A model generated the notes under the pieces. It was not told where the DNA came from and did not search any database. It saw only the letters and a list, made by a program, of their open reading frames with translations. Positions 8,571 through 50,406 of a stretch of DNA of 64,000 bases are shown piece after piece. How positions within the stretch are numbered: position 1 is the first letter of the stretch; the number at the start of each line of letters is the position of its first letter. The stretch comes from Verrucomicrobiota bacterium (GTDB taxonomy: Bacteria > Verrucomicrobiota > Verrucomicrobiia > Limisphaerales > Palsa-1400). Where the stretch lies: NCBI GenBank assembly GCA_049510745.1, contig JBEKYR010000010.1, positions 64,001 to 128,000 of the forward strand. The letters are read 5' to 3'. The position numbers were made by a program, and so were the translations under genes.

Positions 8571-8761
8571 ACGGCGGAAATCCCGGGTCATTTTCCCCGG
8601 TCAATTGGGGCCTGCTCGCCGGCGGCCCCGACGTCAGGGCGAATTTTGCCAAAAAAAGGCCCTGAAAAAATTCCACTTTTTTTCCTTCCGTAGGTTTTTC
8701 GACTTTACCGGGTTGTGCTCAAATTGCGTCCGCGATGAAACGCAACGCAGACATGATAAAT

Positions 8762-8983
8762 ATGAAAACGAGCCGAATCCTTCCGGTTGCCGCCGCCGCC
8801 TTGCTCGCGGCCGGCTGCAAAAACCCCGTCAACCTCTCCGGCTCCTACGCCACCCCGGCGCAGGACATCACCGGGTCCGTCAGCGTCACGACCAACAGCG
8901 TGACGGTGGGGGGCACTTGCGCGAAGACCAATGAAACCGTCGGCGGCAGTGTCACCGTCGGGAAGGAAGAAGGAAGAAGGTAG
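8762..8983 (+). CDS. Small lipoprotein
   Basis: MKTSRILPVAAAALLAAGC lipobox, then a beta-rich S/T/V/G mature part. Confidence 0.7.
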   Translation: MKTSRILPVAAAALLAAGCKNPVNLSGSYATPAQDITGSVSVTTNSVTVGGTCAKTNETVGGSVTVGKEEGRR

Positions 8984-8987
8984 AATT

Positions 8988-9350
8988 ATGAAACTCACCT
9001 CCATCCTGGCCTTTCTCCTTCTGACTTCAGCCTTCGTCCTTTCTCCCGGTTGCGCTTGTCCGCGGCGCAAGGCGGAAACGACGCGCTCGGTGGAATGGTT
9101 CACGGGCCGCGATGACGGCTTGGTGCGGCGCGAGACCTGGCGCGACGCGGAGGGCGGCGGGGGACTGTTCCTGTTCACCGATCCGGCGGTGCAACAAATG
9201 TTCGCGCTGCACACCAACCAGACGGCGTTGGGAGGCGGAAGCCTCTTCAGCGCCGGCACGGCCACAATCACAGTCGATACCAACACCGCCGCCGTGGTCG
9301 GCGCCACGGGGACGGCCGCCGGCAACGTCATCGGCGCGGCGATGAAATAA
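8988..9350 (+). CDS. Putative lipoprotein / membrane protein
   Basis: MKLTSILAFLLLTSAFVLSPGC signal plus Cys; C-terminal glycine-zipper-like GATGTAAGNVIGAA. Confidence 0.65.
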   Translation: MKLTSILAFLLLTSAFVLSPGCACPRRKAETTRSVEWFTGRDDGLVRRETWRDAEGGGGLFLFTDPAVQQMFALHTNQTALGGGSLFSAGTATITVDTNTAAVVGATGTAAGNVIGAAMK

Positions 9351-9435
9351 AGCATGAAGGAAGAAGGAAAAAATCAATCAGCGGCCTCGCGGCCGGAACA
9401 CTCATGATTCTTGTTTCATCCATCTTGCTTTTCCC

Positions 9436-10287
9436 ATGAATCCGCCCGTGCCAAACATATTCGATCCCGCCAACGCCGCCCTGCTGGCGCGGATCAGCGC
9501 CGCGACGTACCAGGCCCAGTTCGAGAGGGAACGGTGGAACGCGGAAGTGGTCGAAGCACCCGACACCGAAACGCGCGTCATTATCCTGAGCGATGAGGCC
9601 GATGAGATCGTCGCTTTCCGGGGCACACGGAACATCCACAACTGGCTCATGGACCTGGAGTGCGAGTTGGCGGACGATCCGCCGGGCCGAATCCATCACG
9701 GCTTCCAAAGGGCGCTCGACTCGATTGAAGGCGAATTAGTCCGCGCGCTTGAGAACTTGAAATCGCGCCGGGTCTGGATGGCGGGCCACAGCCTGGGGGG
9801 CGCGCTGGCTGTGCTCTGCGCCCGCCGGCTGTTGCCCTTGAATTTGGCGGGTGTTTACACGTTCGGCCAACCTCGCGTTGGCGACTCCCCGTTCGCTCAA
9901 TTCTACAATTCACAACTCAAACCGCTGACTTGGCGAGTGGTTTACGCCGATGACATTGTGCCGCGCATCCCTTGGATGCCGGGTGGCTACCGTCACGCCG
10001 GCCACGAAGTTTTCTACCCGGCAGGGCGGCGCTCCCGCGGAGCCGGCCCGGCCGGAGCCGCACCCTACCAGATTGACCCGCCGTTGTGGCAAAAGCTCCC
10101 CAGCGATTTGCGCGGCCTGGCCCGCGAAGCCTGGCGCGGCAAACTGGCCCTGCTCAACGACCACCACATCGACAACTACGTCAAACTTTTTCCTAATCTT
10201 AATCCTTCTCCCAATCTTAATCTCCCCCCGGACGATTCTGAGGGCGGGAGGGGGATTAAGATCAGGATTACGATGAGGAGCCGATAA
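9436..10287 (+). CDS. Class 3 lipase
   Basis: VAFRGT, IHHGF, GHSLGG nucleophile elbow, YTFGQPRVG, DIVPRIP, DHHIDNY. Confidence 0.9.
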   Translation: MNPPVPNIFDPANAALLARISAATYQAQFERERWNAEVVEAPDTETRVIILSDEADEIVAFRGTRNIHNWLMDLECELADDPPGRIHHGFQRALDSIEGELVRALENLKSRRVWMAGHSLGGALAVLCARRLLPLNLAGVYTFGQPRVGDSPFAQFYNSQLKPLTWRVVYADDIVPRIPWMPGGYRHAGHEVFYPAGRRSRGAGPAGAAPYQIDPPLWQKLPSDLRGLAREAWRGKLALLNDHHIDNYVKLFPNLNPSPNLNLPPDDSEGGRGIKIRITMRSR

Positions 10288-10302
10288 AAACCCTTTCTTG
10301 AT

Positions 10303-10734
10303 ATGATGCTCAGCGAGATTTCCTCCGCCGATTTGGGCACCTGGATGTACGCCCTTGGCTCTGTCATCCAGATCGCCGCCACCGTCACCATCCTGGTCAC
10401 TATCAACTCCAAGCAAAAGCGCGAGGTTTCGTTCGCGGGCCAGGCGGTGGACCAGAAGGAATTCGACCGGCTGGTGGCGGAAAACGCGGCGGTCCACGAC
10501 CAGTTGTTCGCCAAGATCGGAGGGGTGGAAAGGGGCGTGGACAGCCGCCTGGCGGTGCGCCTGGACAAGTTCGAGGCCGAAGCCCATGAGTCGCGCCGCC
10601 TCATGCACCAAAACATCAGCGCCATCGGCAACGACGTGGCGGCGTTGAAGAAGGAAGCCGAGCTGGCCAACCAGCGGGCCTTCCAGATGGACGCAAAAAT
10701 CGACCGCCTGATTGAACGAGAAAGACTAGCATGA
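10303..10734 (+). CDS. Single-TM coiled-coil phage protein (Mu gp25/DUF2730-like position)
   Basis: N-terminal TM (WMYALGSVIQIAATVTILVTI) and coiled coil ending KIDRLIE; coupled to the next gene by ATGA. Confidence 0.6.
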   Translation: MMLSEISSADLGTWMYALGSVIQIAATVTILVTINSKQKREVSFAGQAVDQKEFDRLVAENAAVHDQLFAKIGGVERGVDSRLAVRLDKFEAEAHESRRLMHQNISAIGNDVAALKKEAELANQRAFQMDAKIDRLIERERLA

Positions 10735-11003
10735 TAACCGAGAACCAACTCGAGCTGTTTCGCGACGCGCTCTTGCGCGCCCTCAAAGCCGCCGGCTCGA
10801 CCGGCTTAAGTGTATCCACCCTGGAAATCGCGCTGCGCGCCTCCGGCTTCCGCCATTTCAACACGCAGGAACTGGAGGGGCAACTGCAATACTTTGGGGA
10901 CAAAGACTTCGCCGCCGAAGTGCCGAAATCGCACAGCGTGTCAAACAAACGCTGGCGGATCACCGCCGCTGGCATCGACGACCTGGAAGGGAGGGGGATG
11001 TGA
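10731..11003 (+). CDS. Winged-helix protein (Mu gp26-like)
   Basis: 90 aa: RDALLRAL...QLQYFGDKDF...WRITAAGIDDL; position before TerS/TerL. Confidence 0.6.
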   Translation: MITENQLELFRDALLRALKAAGSTGLSVSTLEIALRASGFRHFNTQELEGQLQYFGDKDFAAEVPKSHSVSNKRWRITAAGIDDLEGRGM

Positions 11004-11578
11004 ACAAGGACAAGACAGGGGCGCCAAGCCCGGCGCGCAAGCCTCTCAGCAATTCGTATTGGGACACGCTGAGCGAAGAGGAAAAGGAGTTGGTGCAATC
11101 GGTGTTGCGCAAGCCGGGGGTTTCCCTGCGCGAGGCGAGGGGGCTGGTCCCGCCGATGCGGGACGGTGAGGGGAAGGAGATAGGCCCGCCCGCCGTCGGG
11201 ACGCTCTCCAGGATTTCGCAGGAACTGCGGACGGAGGAAATGCTCTTGGAGATCGAGGCTGACACGGAGCTGGCGAAAGTCATTTGCGGGAAACTCCGGT
11301 CCGGCGCGCTCAGGTCACAGGTGCAGGAGCGGTTGTTGGATGAAATCATGGAAGTAATTGGCGAGGAGGTCAGGCACAAGAGCCTGCGCCGAATGGACCC
11401 CGCCATCCGGACGGCCTCCGCCCGCCTGTTGCTCAAGCGGGCCGACCAACGGCGGGCGGACCGGCGGCAGAAATTCCTCGAGGCGCGAGCCAGGAGAATT
11501 GAAGCCGGACCGACCCGGCCCCACTTGACCGAAGAAGACAAGCAACGGCGTCTAAAGGAACTCCTGGAAATTGCCTGA
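11000..11578 (+). CDS. Putative terminase small subunit (Mu gp27/DUF3486-like)
   Basis: N-terminal HTH-like segment (DTLSEEEKELVQSVL...SLREAR...GTLSRI), helical C-terminus; TGATG overlap with TerL. Confidence 0.55.
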   Translation: MNKDKTGAPSPARKPLSNSYWDTLSEEEKELVQSVLRKPGVSLREARGLVPPMRDGEGKEIGPPAVGTLSRISQELRTEEMLLEIEADTELAKVICGKLRSGALRSQVQERLLDEIMEVIGEEVRHKSLRRMDPAIRTASARLLLKRADQRRADRRQKFLEARARRIEAGPTRPHLTEEDKQRRLKELLEIA

Positions 11579-13119
11579 TGCCGAAAAAATCCAGATCTGT
11601 TTGGCCAGAGCCGCCCAGCGGCCCCAAAGGCCGTCTCCGCGACCGGCTGCTGAAATACCAGCAGCGGTGGGTGGACGATGAATCGCGCTGGAAATTCGGC
11701 CTGATGTCGCGCCAGGTGGGAAAAGATTTTGCCTCCGGGTACGAAGGCGTTTTCGATTGCATGCGCGCCGACGCGGTCGGGAAAAGAACCGATTGGCTGA
11801 TCGTAGCGCCGTCCGAGCGGCAATCGTTGGAATCGCTGGAGAAGTGGAAGTTCTGGGCCAAAGCATTCAAAGGCGTCCTCGAAGACTATGTGGAAAAGCG
11901 CGAAGGCGGCAAAGAAAGCCTGCTCAAATCCGCCACGATCACCTTCCCGTTCGGCAGCCGCGTGATTGCGGTGCCGGGCAAGCCGGACACGGTGCGCGGG
12001 TTCAGCGCGAACGTATTATTGACGGAGTTCGCCTACTTCGAGCAGCCCGACGCCACCTGGCGGGCGATCCTGCCCAGCATCACCAACCCGATTCGCGGCG
12101 GCGTCAAAAAGGTCCGCCTCATCACCACGCCCAACGGCATCGGCAACAAGACGCATGACATCTGGGTCAAGAACCACAAGCCAATCAGCGGACAATTAGT
12201 GAATGGAGGAATCAGTGAATCAGTGAATGCCGAATTCAACAATTCACTCATTCAAACCTCAACTATTGCCGGCGCGTCCGCGCCGGTCTGGTCGTGCCAT
12301 TTCGTCCCGATCCAGGCCGCGGTCGGTGACGGCCTGCCCGTCAACCTCGACGAACTGCGCCAGGCGCTGGACGACCCGGAAGGCTGGGCCCAGGAATTTG
12401 AGTGCCAGTTCATCGACGTTCAGACGGTCCTGCTTCCCTACGAATTGATCGCCGCTTGCGAGAGCAGCGAGGCGACGGCCGCCGCGCCGCCGGATTTCTG
12501 GCTGGGCGGCGGCGCGGGGTCCCCGCCGCTGGTCATGGGCATTGACTTCGGGCGTCGCCGCGACCTGACGGTCGCCTGGAGCAACGCGCAACTGGGAGAC
12601 GTCGCGCGCACGGTGGAGGTGCTGGAATTGGATAAGATGAGCACGCCCGAGCAAGTCGAGTTGTTGCGCCCGCGCCTGCGGCAGGCCCGGCGCGTCTGCC
12701 TGGATTACACCGGGCCGGGCATCGGGCTGGGCGATTACCTGGCGAAGGAGTATGGCGAATGGAATCCGAGTCAACACAAATTCGGGAAGATCGAACTCTG
12801 CGCCTTCACGCCGGGGTTGAAAGTGGAGATTTTCTCCAAGCTGCGCATGGCCTTTGAGAAACGTTCCGTGCGCGTGCCGGTCAGCCGGGCGATTCGGGAA
12901 GACCTGCACAGCGTCAACCGCGTGAGCGGGGCGGCCGGGCAGGTCAGTTACCGCGCGCCGCACAACGCCGACGGCCACGCCGACCGTTGCACGGCCCTGG
13001 CCCTGGCCTGGCGCGCCGCCGGCGCCTCCACCGCCCCGGCCGCCAGCGCCCCCGTGAAAGTCCCGCCCCGTGGCGGCAACCTGGGCCTGGGCAAGGCCGG
13101 CGGGGAGATGTGGCCGTGA
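11578..13119 (+). CDS. terL: Terminase large subunit, Mu gp28/FluMu-type
   Basis: LLKYQQRW Q-motif, SRQVGK Walker A, VRGFSANVLLTEFA Walker B region, ITTPNG, QEFECQF; nuclease domain GIDFGRRRD, LDYTG, HADRCTALALA. Confidence 0.9.
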   Translation: MPKKSRSVWPEPPSGPKGRLRDRLLKYQQRWVDDESRWKFGLMSRQVGKDFASGYEGVFDCMRADAVGKRTDWLIVAPSERQSLESLEKWKFWAKAFKGVLEDYVEKREGGKESLLKSATITFPFGSRVIAVPGKPDTVRGFSANVLLTEFAYFEQPDATWRAILPSITNPIRGGVKKVRLITTPNGIGNKTHDIWVKNHKPISGQLVNGGISESVNAEFNNSLIQTSTIAGASAPVWSCHFVPIQAAVGDGLPVNLDELRQALDDPEGWAQEFECQFIDVQTVLLPYELIAACESSEATAAAPPDFWLGGGAGSPPLVMGIDFGRRRDLTVAWSNAQLGDVARTVEVLELDKMSTPEQVELLRPRLRQARRVCLDYTGPGIGLGDYLAKEYGEWNPSQHKFGKIELCAFTPGLKVEIFSKLRMAFEKRSVRVPVSRAIREDLHSVNRVSGAAGQVSYRAPHNADGHADRCTALALAWRAAGASTAPAASAPVKVPPRGGNLGLGKAGGEMWP

Positions 13120-34103: not shown

Positions 34104-34160
34104 GAGCAGTAGTCGGCTCCCGGCGTGTTATCCGGGCATTTTTTGGGTTTTCATTTTTTG

Positions 34161-34220
34161 GCCCGATTTAGCCGGATTTACCCGGATTTGGCCGGATTTT
34201 TCCGGATTTGTCCGGGTTTG
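34161..34220. repeat. Six tandem 10-bp repeats NCCGGATTTN
   Basis: gcccgattta gccggattta cccggatttg gccggatttt tccggatttg tccgggtttg. Confidence 0.8.
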
Positions 34221-34374
34221 TCGATTGGTTTTCCAGGTTGGTTCCGGCTTCTTTGGCAGGTTTTCGGAGCAGATGCCGGTGCCGGCGAGGCATGGGCAGG
34301 ACAAATTTCTTCGTATAGTGCCGATCGGGGAATGGAGGGTTCCCGCTGCGTAAAAACGCTCCGAGCAGGATTAC

Positions 34375-35343: not shown

Positions 35344-35988
35344 TCACACCGGCGATCCAGTACTCCCCTCACCCAATTGCAGCAGCTTGGTTTCGAGTTC
35401 GCCCACCCTTCGATTGGCCTGCAAGAGTTGGTCAAAAATCCCGGTGCGTTCCTTTTGAAGTTGCTCGATGAAAAAGTCTTTGCCTCGATTCGTAATCTTC
35501 AAATCCAGATTCTCCTTTTCCAGTTCCTTCACCCGTTCGCCAGATTCTGAGACCGGCGCGGAGGCCCCGCTTCGCCCTTCCGCATCTTTCAGAACCGTGC
35601 GGAAAGATTCAGGCGGTTGCGGCGTTTTCGAGGCGGCCCTTGCCTTTTCTTCCGCAATGGCAGTTTCCGCACTCTTGGGTGTGATGTAGTATTTTCGCTC
35701 GTTTGGATCGAAATACGAGTCCAAGCGCGGAATCCCCTGACGATTCGGCTGGCACCAGTTGACGATGCTCCGCTCCGTCCGGGCAACGCCGGCGCCTTCA
35801 AACAATTGTGCCACTTCCCGGACTGTCAGCGTGTGATTTTCTTTGCGTTCCGAAGATTGCGGAACGTTGCGGAAGCTTTCGGAAACGTGCGGAATCTTTC
35901 CGAAGGTTGCGGAATCTTTCCGCACGCTTCCGAACTCTGCGGAATCTTGCGGCACCTTGCCGGACGAGTTTTGGTTGTTTTGATCCAT
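35344..35988 (-). CDS. HTH + coiled-coil protein of plasmid/integrative-element type
   Basis: TLTVREVAQLF...RTERSIVNWC HTH, C-terminal coiled coil; N-terminus encoded by 10-bp repeats. Confidence 0.72.
   Translation of the reverse strand: MDQNNQNSSGKVPQDSAEFGSVRKDSATFGKIPHVSESFRNVPQSSERKENHTLTVREVAQLFEGAGVARTERSIVNWCQPNRQGIPRLDSYFDPNERKYYITPKSAETAIAEEKARAASKTPQPPESFRTVLKDAEGRSGASAPVSESGERVKELEKENLDLKITNRGKDFFIEQLQKERTGIFDQLLQANRRVGELETKLLQLGEGSTGSPV
35848..35967. repeat. About 12 tandem 10-bp repeats (TKCSGAANNT), iteron/centromere-like
   Basis: ttccgaagat tgcggaacgt tgcggaagct ttcggaaacg tgcggaatct ttccgaaggt tgcggaatct... Confidence 0.75.
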
Positions 35989-36069
35989 GAAGGTTTTTGA
36001 TGAGGACGGGGAAGTCCGGTTTATCCACATTTGGAGCTCGCCTGGACTTGTGAGATAATCATACCACAC

Positions 36070-36420
36070 ATGAAAACAATAGGGGAAATCCTCAAGGAGA
36101 AAAACCTGCAACTTGACACGGAAAATCCCGTGTTGCGGGGCGGCTTCACCCAGGTCCCGAATTTCATCCTCAAAGACTCCAAATTGTCCGTCGGCGCAAA
36201 GGTCGCCTACGCCATGTTCCTGAGCTACGCGTGGCACAATGAGTCCTGTTTTCCCGGTCAGGAGCGGCTGGCGACGGACATGGGCATGACCCGGCCTCGC
36301 GTCACCCAATTGCCCCAACAACGAGGGCTACATACATGGTATGTAGGGGCGCGGATCGCGCCGGCGACCGACGGGTGGCTCAACAGAGCCATACGACTTC
36401 CCCAACGTGTCGTCGGCTAG
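36070..36420 (+). pseudogene. HTH_36-type replication-initiator-like wHTH protein, truncated
   Basis: GFTQVPNFIL..SKLSVGAKVAY...CFPGQERLATDMGMTRPRVTQL; similarity ends mid-HTH near 36312. Confidence 0.7.
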
Positions 36421-46045: not shown

Positions 46046-47410
46046 ATGGCAGCAACCATGCAACAGCCGAAGGGAACCCGTCGCAAACCGGCAAGGCGCC
46101 CTTCATTCGATGTAAAGCGAGATTCCGTGCGGGTGCATGTGCGCTTCAGCCCGCAGAAAATCGGTCGTTACTGGTACGAATCTTGGATCGTCGAATATTC
46201 CTTCCGCGGTGAGCGGATTCGCGAACGATGCAGCACCGAGCGAAAGGCAAAGGCGTGCGCCGACGCAGCCGCCACCAAGCTGGCCCATGGCGACATGCAA
46301 GCCTTGGAACTCCGGGGTGAGGACCGTCGCATTTATCTGGCGGCCGTGGCCCAGTTGGAGGGTTTGCAGATCCGGTTGGATGTGGCCGCCCGCGAATATG
46401 CGGAAGCCAAACGGATCGCCAAAAACGCCGACCTTCGGAACGTGGCCGGCTTTTACCAGAAGTATGCGCGCACCAAACTCAAGCCCGTTACCGTTCCCGA
46501 GTTGGTTAAAGAAATGATCACGAATCTGGAGTTGGACAAGCGTGGCGATTATCACGTTCGGGATTTGGAAGTTCGCCTGGGCCGATTTGCCACAGATTTT
46601 CCCTGCCAGATCACCGACATCGTCACGGACCAAATCGAAAACTGGCTGCGAGGGTTGAAATCGCTGGCCAAGGGTGCTCGCCGGGGAGGGGCGCTCAAGG
46701 GCCGGTCACGGAACAATTACCGGAATGCCATTGTCGAATTATTCAACTACGCCAAGAAGCACGGATACCTGCCCAAAGACTTATCCACCGAAGCCTCCAG
46801 CGTCAACCGCGTCTCGGAAGCAGACAAACGGGAGAATGAGATTTTCCTGCCGAAACAGATTGACGAACTCCTGTCGCTCGCGCCACTGCACTTGATCCCT
46901 TCCATGGCGATCAAAGCGTTCAGTGGGGTGCGAACAGAAGAAATCGCATTTATGGAATGGAAACACGTCCACTTCCGGCGAGGCAAGGGATACATTATTC
47001 TTCCCAAATCAATCACGAAGAAAAGGCGCCGCCGTATCATGCCGATCCTGCCGAATCTCCGAAAATGGATTGATCCCTTCGAAGGTTTAACAGGGCGGAT
47101 CTGTGCGCAGTGGTCAACGCCGCAGGGCGTGTTTCAGGCATGGGATCGTTTTGCCAAGAAGCGGAATATCCCTGCGGGTGCAAACCGGTTTCGCAACAGC
47201 TACATCTCCTACCGGGTCGCACAAACCTCTGACTCCAAGAAGGTCGCGCTGGAAACCGGCAATTCGGAGGAGGTGATCATGGAGGATTATCTGGAATTGA
47301 CGACACCCGAAGACGCGGCGCGATGGTTTAAGACAAGCCCATCGGTAAAACGGATTGCGGCTTTGACAGTTTATGCCAGTAAACTAAAGCGGGCGCAGGC
47401 GTCCGACTGA
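46046..47410 (+). CDS. Tyrosine recombinase/integrase
   Basis: SRNNYRNAIVELF core-binding region, FSGVRTEEI (R), NRFRNSYISY, ETGNSEEVIMEDY (Y). Confidence 0.9.
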   Translation: MAATMQQPKGTRRKPARRPSFDVKRDSVRVHVRFSPQKIGRYWYESWIVEYSFRGERIRERCSTERKAKACADAAATKLAHGDMQALELRGEDRRIYLAAVAQLEGLQIRLDVAAREYAEAKRIAKNADLRNVAGFYQKYARTKLKPVTVPELVKEMITNLELDKRGDYHVRDLEVRLGRFATDFPCQITDIVTDQIENWLRGLKSLAKGARRGGALKGRSRNNYRNAIVELFNYAKKHGYLPKDLSTEASSVNRVSEADKRENEIFLPKQIDELLSLAPLHLIPSMAIKAFSGVRTEEIAFMEWKHVHFRRGKGYIILPKSITKKRRRRIMPILPNLRKWIDPFEGLTGRICAQWSTPQGVFQAWDRFAKKRNIPAGANRFRNSYISYRVAQTSDSKKVALETGNSEEVIMEDYLELTTPEDAARWFKTSPSVKRIAALTVYASKLKRAQASD

Positions 47411-47494
47411 CCTGCATCGTTTTTCTCCATCCGGCGGATTTCATTTCCCGAGTACAAATAACCTGGCCACTTTCGGACCCCTCTAATTTGCAAA

Positions 47495-47575
47495 CATGTC
47501 GTCACCACCACCCAAAATCAAGCCCTTAATGCAGTCGTCTTTTTCTGCAAGGAGGCCCTCGCCTTCGATCTATAA
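47495..47575 (+). pseudogene. Fragment of an integron-integrase-like N-terminal SAM domain
   Basis: Hand translation HVVTTTQNQALNAVVFFCKEALAFDL* resembles the IntI motif STQNQALxALLFLY. Confidence 0.6.
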
Positions 47576-47837
47576 AACAGCCACGTTTTGGGGGCCAGCC
47601 CAGGGTCATTCCCGGCTCTCGCGGTGGCCAGGGCCATCTCACGGCTACGTTAGCGGCCTCCACAAATGTGCGACCGCTCCCCTCCGGGCCTTTCCGGCTG
47701 AGTGACCGACATCGCGGCCCCCGCGTGCCCGGTTGCCGGACCGCTCAAGCAGCAAGTTTGTGCCGAAGGCGAATTGGGGGAGAAGATTGTTGGTGCATAA
47801 ACTTGGCCAAGGCCAATGCCCCTATCTCCTCTTGGAT

Positions 47838-48692
47838 CTATCGAAGTTCGACATCTCTGATGCCCGCACATTTCGTCTCCGCAAACGTCGAGCAACCCCA
47901 AAACTCTCGGCCGGCGTGTTGCCCCGTCCTGGCCCGTCGCAGCACCATGTCGCTGCCACAGCGCGGGAATTTTGGCCGCGCCGGAGCAGTGTCAGGCAGC
48001 GATATTTGAGTCGGCATTGAAGTCGTGGATTCAGATGGAGCTGAAGCCTGCTTCATCATTGATTGAACCCGCCGTAACATTTCCGCCAGTTGTGCGCCAT
48101 CCACAAGTTCGATTGGTTTGCCCTGGGCGAATCGTACAGCCTCGTCGGTGCAAATGCCACTGGTGATAAAAATGGCCCGGTCGGCTTTTTCCGCCGCCAT
48201 TACCCCGAAAAGCTCCCTGACCGGCTTGACACCGACCTGGTAGGTTTTCCACCGTTTACACTGGACGATGGAAGTCATGCCGTCGCGTTGAAGTCGGAGG
48301 TCAACACCGCCGTCCGGGCCGCCTCCGCCGGTTTCTGCCACCCGATACCCGTGATGCCGATGTACCTCGGCAACCTGCCGTTCAAAGTCTTGCCAACTGA
48401 GCCTGTTCAGCCAGTCGATGTCCAGATGTTGCCGTAGGAAGGCAACCCTTTGCTGGCGGAGCTTCCAGCCAGCCACACCGGCAGCGAGGCTGACAATGGC
48501 AGCAAGGGCACTCAGCAGGGCCCCGAGCATCTGAACGCTCGGAATATTGATGGCGCGCTGGAACCAAATCACAGGGATGAAGAAGACTGCCATGGCAACC
48601 GGGATGCACCATGCCGGATGAACCACGGAAAACAGCCAGCGCAGGATTTCAAAAAGATCGTCCCACAAATCAGTTCTGCGTCGTCGAGACAT
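47838..48692 (-). CDS. Mrr-like restriction endonuclease with N-terminal TMs and topoisomerase-type C4 zinc ribbon
   Basis: LSWQDFE, GPDGGVDL, VQCKRW, ELVDG; C-terminal (F)PRCGSDMVLR...FWGCSTF...C. Confidence 0.88.
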   Translation of the reverse strand: MSRRRRTDLWDDLFEILRWLFSVVHPAWCIPVAMAVFFIPVIWFQRAINIPSVQMLGALLSALAAIVSLAAGVAGWKLRQQRVAFLRQHLDIDWLNRLSWQDFERQVAEVHRHHGYRVAETGGGGPDGGVDLRLQRDGMTSIVQCKRWKTYQVGVKPVRELFGVMAAEKADRAIFITSGICTDEAVRFAQGKPIELVDGAQLAEMLRRVQSMMKQASAPSESTTSMPTQISLPDTAPARPKFPRCGSDMVLRRARTGQHAGREFWGCSTFAETKCAGIRDVELR

Positions 48693-48813
48693 TTGGTCAG
48701 CCTCTCGATTCTTGCTCCCATGTTATTAACGGGTAGGTTGAAAGGGGCGCGCTCAATTCACAATGCCGCAGCTCTTACTCCTTGGTTCTGACCGCCAGTT
48801 TAATTGTCGGCCC

Positions 48814-48905
48814 TTTGGTTTTTGAAACCAAATCACATGGAATTCTTCAGTTTTAAAGCAAGTCATGTGCCACCGCAGCACATGAATATGGTTTCAAAAA
48901 CCAAA
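48814..48905. repeat. Perfect 17-bp inverted repeat of a self-palindromic site
   Basis: TTTGGTTTTTGAAACCA (48814-30) and TGGTTTCAAAAACCAAA (48889-905); inner CATGTGC/GCACATG stem. Confidence 0.75.
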
Positions 48906-49056
48906 TTTCCAGCGGTTACATTGGCCGCCAAGACCAAAGATTGAGAGGCTCGGTTACCACACCAGCCGGGATGACTTATGCATTCGCCGCTCCGGCCAGC
49001 GCACGCCGTCGGAGTCTTCATCCGAAATTTCCGTCATCTCCGCCTTCCTCCTCGCC

Positions 49057-49980
49057 TCAATCATCTTCGTTGCGCATATTCCTGATTTTTCCGCACTTTT
49101 CCAGCCACCGGTATGCGGTGCTGAGTGAAATCTCAACGTGCCGGTTTTTATTGAACCAGCCGACCGCCTTGGGGCCCGTGTCCGCCTCGCCGCTTTCGAA
49201 TGCCGCCTTCAGGGCATCAAACACCCCGGGTTGCCACAATTCTGATTTAATCGACGTGGCGGTGAAAAGATTCAAGTCGCCCTCCACCTCGCGATATCGT
49301 TCCACCCAGCGGTACAGCGATTTTACCGGGCAGCCCAAGGCCTCAGCGATGTTTTTGATCTCATAATCAGGATTCACGTCCCCGCCGCGCCCTTCCTCCA
49401 AGGCCCGGCTGCGCTCGTCCAGCCACAGAATTGCGTCCAATCTCTTCTCAACCTCCAGAAATGGCGACTTGTCACGCGCCTCTTGCCACGCTTTCGGGTC
49501 GTCTAATTGGAGGGCCAGCACGCTCTCCGTGTTATGGTTCGCATGCGTTTCTTCTTTGCTACCGGGATCGTGCCGCGGACAGGCGAACCCTAGCCGGCGG
49601 CGCCAATAGTAAATGTTGCATTTCCTCAGCCCAATCCCCTTTTGGGCCAGCCAAGCCTGCACTTCACTCGCTGTCATGTTGGCGGCAAATTGCTTCTTGA
49701 GGCCGGCCAGGATTTCACCTTCGATGGCAGTTTTTTTGCCGCCGCCGTGGCGGCGTCTTAAAAGGCCGGTTAGGCCTTCTTGGTTTAGATGTCGCATCCA
49801 AGTGAAGAAATGTTGGCGGCTGATGCCAACGCGCTGGGCGATTTGGGCGGCGTTGAGTTGCCTCTCCAACGCAAGACGAACGGCGGCGAGCTTTTTGGAC
49901 TGCAAGGGCATCGCGTGGAGATCTGCGCTCTCGATGTCCTCCAGCCTTAATCCCCTCGGTAAACGAATTCGTCGTGTCAT
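49057..49980 (-). CDS. DNA-binding protein with two tandem IS630-type HTH + winged-HTH modules, no DDE domain
   Basis: AQIAQRVGISRQHFFTW...GLTGL...NIYYWRRRLG, repeated as KNIAEALGCPVKSLYRWV...ISLSTAYRWL. Confidence 0.7.
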   Translation of the reverse strand: MTRRIRLPRGLRLEDIESADLHAMPLQSKKLAAVRLALERQLNAAQIAQRVGISRQHFFTWMRHLNQEGLTGLLRRRHGGGKKTAIEGEILAGLKKQFAANMTASEVQAWLAQKGIGLRKCNIYYWRRRLGFACPRHDPGSKEETHANHNTESVLALQLDDPKAWQEARDKSPFLEVEKRLDAILWLDERSRALEEGRGGDVNPDYEIKNIAEALGCPVKSLYRWVERYREVEGDLNLFTATSIKSELWQPGVFDALKAAFESGEADTGPKAVGWFNKNRHVEISLSTAYRWLEKCGKIRNMRNEDD

Positions 49981-50103
49981 AACCTATCTTAACCCCCGCG
50001 CCGTAAAAATCAACATACGAACTATAATATTTCTATATGTGTCATTAAAAGACAATACACCCATAAACAAGATAATGAAAGCACGGACTCATTGTCCGGC
50101 TTT

Positions 50104-50406
50104 ATGCGCAAGAACCGCCAAAGTTACAGGTCGAAGGCCCGGAAAGGGCGGGCACTTCTCCAGCCGGGAGGATCCGACAGCATTGCACTTGAACCGCAAT
50201 TGCTGAAAACGCGCCACCAAATGGCGGCACGGTACCAGGTCAGCGTGCGCACGATCGGTTATTGGGTGCAAGACGGAACGCTTCCGGTGTACCAACGCGG
50301 CGCGGTCGTGCGATTCAATCCCCACGAGTGTGACGAGGCGCTGAAAGCATTCCGTCGCAAGTCCCGCTGGGAGGCATCTGCCGAGGAAGAGGGCGGCAGC
50401 GTATGA
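50104..50406 (+). CDS. Excisionase-like (MerR/HTH_17) protein
   Basis: LKTRHQMAARYQVSVRTIGYWVQDGTLP...VVRFN; divergent from the HTH gene. Confidence 0.75.
   Translation: MRKNRQSYRSKARKGRALLQPGGSDSIALEPQLLKTRHQMAARYQVSVRTIGYWVQDGTLPVYQRGAVVRFNPHECDEALKAFRRKSRWEASAEEEGGSV

Follow-up and report, generated by a model that had tools for sequence, protein, structure and literature searches.

The window analysed here is a 64,000-nt stretch of a Verrucomicrobiota genome (contig JBEKYR010000010.1 of assembly GCA_049510745.1, positions 64,001 to 128,000 of the forward strand), and its subject is a block of seven open reading frames (ORFs) at window positions 8762-13119 that ends in a phage-type large terminase gene (terL). 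The genome, G000 below, is 94% complete, and the block lies on its contig C10. A preliminary description of this DNA had reported seven uninterrupted, co-oriented ORFs with ATGA, GTGA and TGATG junctions, bordered on either side by SDR and FHA genes; the letters of the block confirm each of these features. They also bear out its host-like codons (G+C content at third codon positions, GC3, of 0.74-0.83 against a genome median of 0.79) and its clean stop after a full TerL, three portal queries against the window giving a best match of E=0.13. Four DNA runs agree with the block without differences in the long pieces listed, and a credible joint skipping the block is absent from them, which says little.

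Gene content of the block

All seven genes read on the forward strand. The first two encode predicted lipoproteins, a small one of 73 aa (8762..8983; alternative start 8735; counterparts in relatives) and one of 120 aa (8988..9350), with a signal-plus-Cys sequence as the sole basis of both calls. The third encodes a class 3 lipase (9436..10287; Lipase_3, E=3e-29) with GHSLG, Asp and His motifs. It occupies the slot of the lysis genes in phages B3 and Mu, and phage relatives in the IMG/VR database have one too; the gene is missing from relative G004 and frameshifted in G002. The earlier label of lysis genes is apt by position and finds no backing by family, as the block proteins match no endolysin, holin or spanin family. 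Lysis is possibly lipase-based in the uncultured Mu-like phages L255, L250 and L173 of IMG/VR, which encode a class 3 lipase or, by eye, a patatin-like protein, and in whose fetched stretches no endolysin was noticed.

A protein with an N-terminal transmembrane (TM) segment and a coiled coil (10303..10734) stands in the position of Mu gp25, which is described as the membrane-tethered releasin of transposable phages (PMC9239132); the two are alike in position and topology only, and DUF2730 does not match the block protein. Next come a 90-aa winged helix-turn-helix protein (10731..11003) in the position of Mu gp26, with a weak match to phrog_436 (E=1e-3), and a candidate gp27-like small terminase (TerS; 11000..11578), so called from its position and from Atlas clusters. 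This ORF matches neither Pfam nor PHROG families; its nearest Atlas cluster is without a name (0.95), and in the next two (0.94) 12% and 28% of the members carry Mu gp27. Its final 17 residues are identical in an orphan gp27-like paralogue on contig C8. The TerS, gp26 and gp25 labels should be taken as putative, since they derive from where the genes stand in comparison with phage B3 and from matches that are weak or feature-based.

The last gene (11578..13119) encodes a B3/Mu gp28-type TerL (Terminase_6N/6C; phrog_2, E=1e-32) in which the Walker A, Walker B and acidic nuclease residues are kept. The nearest cultured TerLs are those of transposable phages, at 29-34% identity, while relatives in IMG/VR reach 61% (63-65% for the capsid protein discussed below). 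The two Walker motifs carry a reciprocal swap (window 11710-11725 and 12010-12030): Walker A reads GKD and Walker B hhTE (hhSE in one paralogue) in 18/18 TerL rows of the family clade, against GKS and DE in the two nearest outgroups, and the nuclease aspartates are retained. The swap defines a TerL clade that includes uncultured phages. Decay as the source of these changes is rejected, the identical swap being found in two fully and two partly scored IMG/VR contigs, and because phages carry it we infer that the block TerL is a working ATPase.

A variable loop of TerL (12177..12275, approximate bounds, forward strand) holds an in-frame insert with a 13-mer host repeat, and the frame-preserving repeat insertion of the preliminary description is thus real. 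The 13-mer forms 43 clusters across G000, of which three are within long genes, all of them terL paralogues and in the equivalent loop; the sequence that fills the loop differs in each genome. Sequence searches of the PDB with TerL, and with the capsid and tube proteins described next, give nothing below E=0.09.

Other loci of the element

The block had been called an orphan, which holds within the window and fails genome-wide. The suggested search for head-tail genes elsewhere leads to contig C23, where a Mu-type portal gene, the single copy in G000, opens a cluster of about 16 kb that follows host genes; the element is split at the terL-portal junction. The cluster includes Mu-type protease I and gp36, a capsid protein whose model (pLDDT 59) matches HK97-fold capsids (Foldseek E=2e-7), and a two-domain, T5 pb6-like tube protein (pLDDT 78; Foldseek E=1e-9). 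Fifteen genome records match the capsid protein, nine of them at 88-92% (eight Verrucomicrobiota-type metagenome-assembled genomes and one Ca. Baltobacteraceae). Contig C3 carries a helix-turn-helix (HTH) repressor, a 76-aa gene, a 205-aa MuB-like fragment and Gam. Spread over C10, C23, C3 and possibly C9, the loci are dispersed in the manner of gene transfer agent (GTA) operons, and the host chromosome contains, as it does for a GTA, terminase, portal, capsid and tail genes of phage origin; the modules are likewise separate in the 5-contig genome G012.

At C9:127471-128871 (L313-L322) an XRE regulator and a divergent HTH_17 gene sit beside ilvE-mcsA-mcsB-clpC, as in most genomes examined of the genera g1, g3, g5 and g8. 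The small gene of the pair has homologues among Mu-like phage early genes, and the pair is a candidate regulator of the split system. Three more full-length terL paralogues (61-68% identical) and a fragment lie among host genes of G000 (C8:64550, C22:41212-42780, C70:13843-15300 and C3:93947), for totals of four full terL genes and five gp27-like orphans to one portal. Two of the terL paralogues precede a gp27-like gene, which is the reversed order, and a copy of the early operator-promoter stands at the head of one orphan terL-terS pair.

No replication or transposition genes are detected in G000, as expected of a GTA. MuA, whose absence the preliminary description had asked to be checked, is matched neither by phage MuA queries nor by a MuA profile built from the closest IMG/VR phages (PF02914 matched no genome, controls included, so its silence in G000 is uncontrolled). 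By tblastn, the MuA, MuB, gpF, gpG and tape measure proteins of those phages give nothing in G000 at E<0.01, and its generic DDE fragments are unlinked to the element. Judged as a Mu-type phage, G000 has gp27, gp28, gp29, I, gp36 and Gam and lacks Mor/C, endolysin, gpF, gpG and a tape measure of the phage kind; judged as a transposable prophage, it lacks MuA, a full MuB and the contiguity in which terL abuts the portal. A phrog_296 match on contig C14 was rejected as MuB, being an ExeA-like AAA gene between host genes, and phrog_310 is uninformative as a transposase marker, with matches in 27/31 genomes of the family set and 6/14 controls. At one match to this transposase-like family (L169:9505-11601 in G020) a 698-aa ORF carries a gp27-like N-terminal domain, and similar overlaps occur in G002, G022 and G026. 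ComEC, a common gene found also in 10/14 controls, is encoded in G000. Elsewhere in the window, a repeat-rich 214-aa ORF with a small HTH replication-like gene (35344-36420) and an integrase-like gene amid mobile debris (46127-50406) have no visible link to the block.

A promoter-like element and its scattered copies

Upstream of the first lipoprotein gene lies a late-type promoter-like element (8667..8730, forward strand) made of an A/T tract, an imperfect 11-bp dyad (8684-8694), a T tract, and a TG with a weak -10-like hexamer (8716-8724); a sigma-70 consensus scan does not pick it up. A 29-mer from this region is found again upstream of the C23 portal, with 27/29 nt alike and two mismatches, so that the two halves of the split element have it in common. 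The dyad sequence varies by genome, and the block promoter matches the portal promoter of its own genome best in 8/8 cases (one tie). G015 is consistent with this within-genome match, and in G024 the motif occurs exactly twice, at the block and portal positions. The early promoter has two operator-like dyads, kept in the six relatives shown.

In G000, 26 sites lie within seven mismatches of the 29-mer (block, C23 portal and 24 further), and a 14-mer core has 27 matches against one for the reversed core. About 17 of the copies are 470-bp units, 80-88% alike, in which the promoter is joined to the 3' end of a gp27-like gene; others precede one orphan terL and two orphan gp27-like genes. A promoter-less relic of the same terS-tail repeat lies in the window on the reverse strand (34130..34295); over 167 nt it matches a full copy at 84% identity. 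The promoter copies lie in repeat-rich intergenic mosaics. With a regulon of adjoining genes in view, the gene downstream of a promoter copy is co-oriented with it in 17/26 cases (five placed approximately). Counts from a degenerate pattern are 2 in G024, 5 in G017, 48 in G012, 79 in G006 and, with palindromes entering twice, 53 in G004; controls give 0-1. Among 20 fetched copies, 4 stand before gp27-like genes. In genus g10 a different motif upstream of the block is likewise scattered (19, 13, 4 and 3 copies) and is found ahead of orphan terS-terL pairs. The orphan gp27-like family occurs in 26/31 genomes and has its C-terminal helix in common with the in-block TerS.

What the copies are for is a matter of judgement, and so are the weights given here: there is an even chance that they reflect passive copying within repeat mosaics, a role as an activator sink or regulon is possible and rather doubtful, and a role as packaging start sites is unlikely. 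An extended form of the last idea, in which late-promoter/terS cassettes would serve as packaging starts, travel at the front of the packaged DNA and re-insert in recipients, building tens of genome-specific start sites and variant TerS and TerL proteins that set which chromosome parts move, we hold to be improbable.

Distribution and descent in the family

The family set comprises 31 genomes, 13 of them from g1, g3, g5 and g8. In these four genera the element is near-fixed: the Mu-type portal occurs in 12/13 genomes, in one copy each and at 68-83% identity, and the block in 11/13; the comparison with relatives that the preliminary description proposed thus finds the same cut block in them. 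Beyond terL, 8/11 blocks run into non-portal DNA and two reach a contig edge; in G001 a 2.2-kb gap is followed by promoter and portal. In g10 (G016, G025, G028) the block overlaps the portal; portal and capsid are of another type, no promoter lies between terL and portal, and in G016 everything from repressor to tail is in one piece, without a transposase. In G014 (g7) portal and capsid are HK97-type, and the tail is a related one. No Mu-type portal is found in g4 or g7 genomes, which keep terL copies; the one-contig g4 genome G005 (L164, L163), for example, has seven distant terL matches, one of them amid core genes, and no such portal. The tube profile matches 7/8 family genomes against 12/292 of other families in the order, while the repressor is present in 26/31 family genomes and its tree groups genera. 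The MuA profile is strong in 2/31, and in G012 the match has its own MuB and early genes, apart from the split modules. G010 (L168, C135) has another block, of a distant TerL type (29%), in which repressor, Gam, lipoprotein, lipase, terS and terL are followed by host genes; it may have been cut independently at the same point.

A tree of nine head-tail genes from 11 genomes (G026 excluded for want of RpoB) has 5/8 splits in common with that of RpoB, a number reached by 0/10,000 label shuffles; as a yardstick, two RpoB trees agree in 6/8. The Mantel rho of head-tail against RpoB is 0.39 with G001 and 0.72 without it. Ratios of nonsynonymous to synonymous divergence (dN/dS, by Nei-Gojobori) are mostly 0.05-0.3, well below 1, the value near which the preliminary description would have been refuted, with dS close to that of RpoB and a few tail-tip and lipase values at 0.4-0.8. 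The second lipoprotein (0.15-0.39) and the TM protein (0.09-0.21) of the block are similar. Between G000 and G002 the values are 0.18 for terL, 0.15 for the portal and 0.06 for the capsid (dS 0.76-0.91 against 0.79 for RpoB), and in the least saturated pair, G025-G028 (RpoB dS 0.23), 0.20 for terL and 0.14 for the tube. Orphan terL pairs give 0.42-0.45, against 0.19-0.26 in comparisons with the block copy. A count over 180 gene-genome cells finds 6 broken or partial, four of which belong to G002, and 35 with the gene undetected, in many cases at a contig end or in sequence not fetched; the remaining 139 are open. The G009 protease counts as open by this test, yet is not callable as a single ORF. 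Vertical inheritance under purifying selection, a further mark of a GTA, is the pattern seen apart from G001, a mosaic TerL tree and decay in G002. The head-tail genes largely follow the host tree; agreement of the TerL tree with it, which the preliminary description asked to check, is not supported. The SDR...FHA synteny is not conserved, the FHA-side flank being common to G000 and G002 only.

Interpretation

On balance, we think it probable that the block provides packaging, and likely release, in a B3/Mu-like prophage remnant: a remnant lacking any detectable transposase, split over at least three loci and domesticated as a GTA-like system. In such a system the conserved HTH protein would repress the early promoter at its two operator-like dyads, and a putative activator would bind the 11-bp dyad and switch on both late loci, much as Mu C does. 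TerS and TerL, with ATPase and nuclease intact, would fill HK97-fold heads from the chromosome, since Mu-type phages package out of integrated DNA and no replicated phage genome is available here. The particles would be short-tailed and carry pieces of host chromosome, the lipase and lipoproteins may aid release, the surplus gp27-like genes, whose products end in the C-terminal helix of the in-block TerS, may broaden the choice of packaging start, and recipients would take up the particle DNA.

Several observations weigh against this reading. No Mor/C activator gene is found in 6/6 genomes searched, no lysis family matches in the block, and the tail is reduced, with a candidate remnant of 187-253 aa as the only sign of a tape measure in G000. 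Head modules have been swapped, and g10 and g7 have other portal and capsid types; flanking genes vary between most genomes; in the head-tail tree G001 falls out of place, and TerL has a mosaic tree. The block is missing from G009 (95% complete), which keeps head-tail genes, and both are missing from G022 (89% complete). In G002 the lipase and capsid genes are frameshifted, the tube gene contains a stop and the block has no terS; G017 has a frameshifted capsid gene. Most pairs have dS close to saturation, so that low dN/dS may be an inheritance from a phage past, and GTA-like elements are described as hard to distinguish from defective prophages (PMC12946183).

The same evidence can be read in other ways. 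A recently deleted prophage, which the preliminary description had kept in play, is rejected because relatives have the same cut and the missing genes sit elsewhere in the genome. An old cryptic prophage (or several) in slow decay, with low dN/dS left from phage life and pieces scattered without benefit by host repeat machinery, would account for the broken genes of G002 and G017, the losses in G009 and G022, the variable head modules and sites, the promoter copies in intergenic mosaics, and the MuA/MuB-bearing related phages in IMG/VR and as separate prophages in relatives. We regard it as rather unlikely, given that 139/145 detected gene-genome cells are open after a dS of about 0.8, that the split point is the same in four genera with a promoter gained at the portal and motifs concerted within each genome, and that the tree is host-like, GC3 is at host level and the terL repeat insertions are in frame.

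It is also unlikely, though slightly less so, that the element is domesticated to another end, making killer or decoy particles in the manner of PBSX, whose particles kill, or terminase subunits that disrupt how incoming Mu-like phages package their DNA. Without gpF, gpG and the long tape measure, DNA delivery, which the SPP1 counterparts of gpF and gpG assist, would be impeded; the surplus of full terL genes and gp27-like orphans over the one portal, the terL-terS pair under an early operator-promoter copy and the terL copies kept in g4 and g7 without a Mu-type portal all suit interference. Against this, portal, protease and capsid are conserved together with the TerL catalytic motifs, as fits DNA filling, and the orphan terL genes are less constrained than the block copy. 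Less probable still is a helper-dependent remnant that, once activated by an incoming Mu-like phage, would lend heads and terminases and move its own promoter-terminase cassettes: the missing activator, a similar dyad upstream of the first lipoprotein gene in related phages (the G011 prophage, for example) and evident module swaps with phages speak for it, whereas a dyad that is genome-specific and fixed in up to 79 copies suits a resident binder better, and no mobility gene adjoins any module.

If the domestication reading is true, a Mu/B3-derived GTA fixed in a peat and soil family of Verrucomicrobia would add a new ancestor and a new phylum to the few independent GTA origins known to us. 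The family would then preserve stages of domestication next to one another: an element in one piece that lacks a transposase (G016), one that has acquired a promoter at the portal (G001), full separation (G000, G012) and decay (G002). The literature searched contains no Mu-derived or verrucomicrobial GTA, with supplements and most subscription papers outside its range, so that candidate tables could list these genomes.

Comparison with known systems

On genomic grounds the element resembles a GTA, and appears to be neither a transposable prophage nor a copy of the Rhodobacter capsulatus agent (RcGTA). Like B3 (Beetrevirus), other transposable phages and the IMG/VR loci L170-L174 and L250-L256, it has the order gp26-gp27-gp28, portal, protease, capsid, gp36, and like B3 and the transposable phages it has repressor, MuB-like and Gam genes. 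Unlike them it has no MuA, a MuB cut to 205 aa, and no gpF, gpG, long tape measure, Mor/C or endolysin, and it is split over loci, single-copy and near-fixed in its host clade.

The late promoters of Mu are described as having a -10 box and no typical -35, with C bound to an imperfect dyad centred at -43.5 (PMC2582627); the dyad here would be centred near -42, if the hexamer is the -10 box. In contrast to Mu, this dyad is 11 bp long and genome-specific, no Mor/C protein is found in the six genomes searched, and a promoter-like motif stands upstream of the portal; the Mu set of Plys, PI, PP and Pmom includes no promoter there. Host-DNA packaging by P22 in Salmonella offers another comparison: nine short, chance-like host sites resembling the terS-internal pac are reported to direct it (PMC11260489). 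The relics in G000 also contain the 3' part of a terS-like gene; where P22 has nine short motifs, the element has tens of near-identical promoter-plus-terS copies per genome, for which a pac role is hypothetical.

GTAs are described as keeping phage structural genes in several chromosomal operons, without replication genes (PMC12946183), and this dispersal and this lack are what RcGTA and the element have in common. The short tape-measure candidate also has a parallel in RcGTA. The TerLs of RcGTA-like elements are placed closest to P22-like headful terminases (PMC7947584), and by that published description RcGTA is set apart from the B3/Mu-type TerL and portal found here. The element further differs from RcGTA, on present genomic evidence, in its phylum, in keeping a phage repressor and Gam, and in its multiplied TerS and TerL genes and promoter copies.

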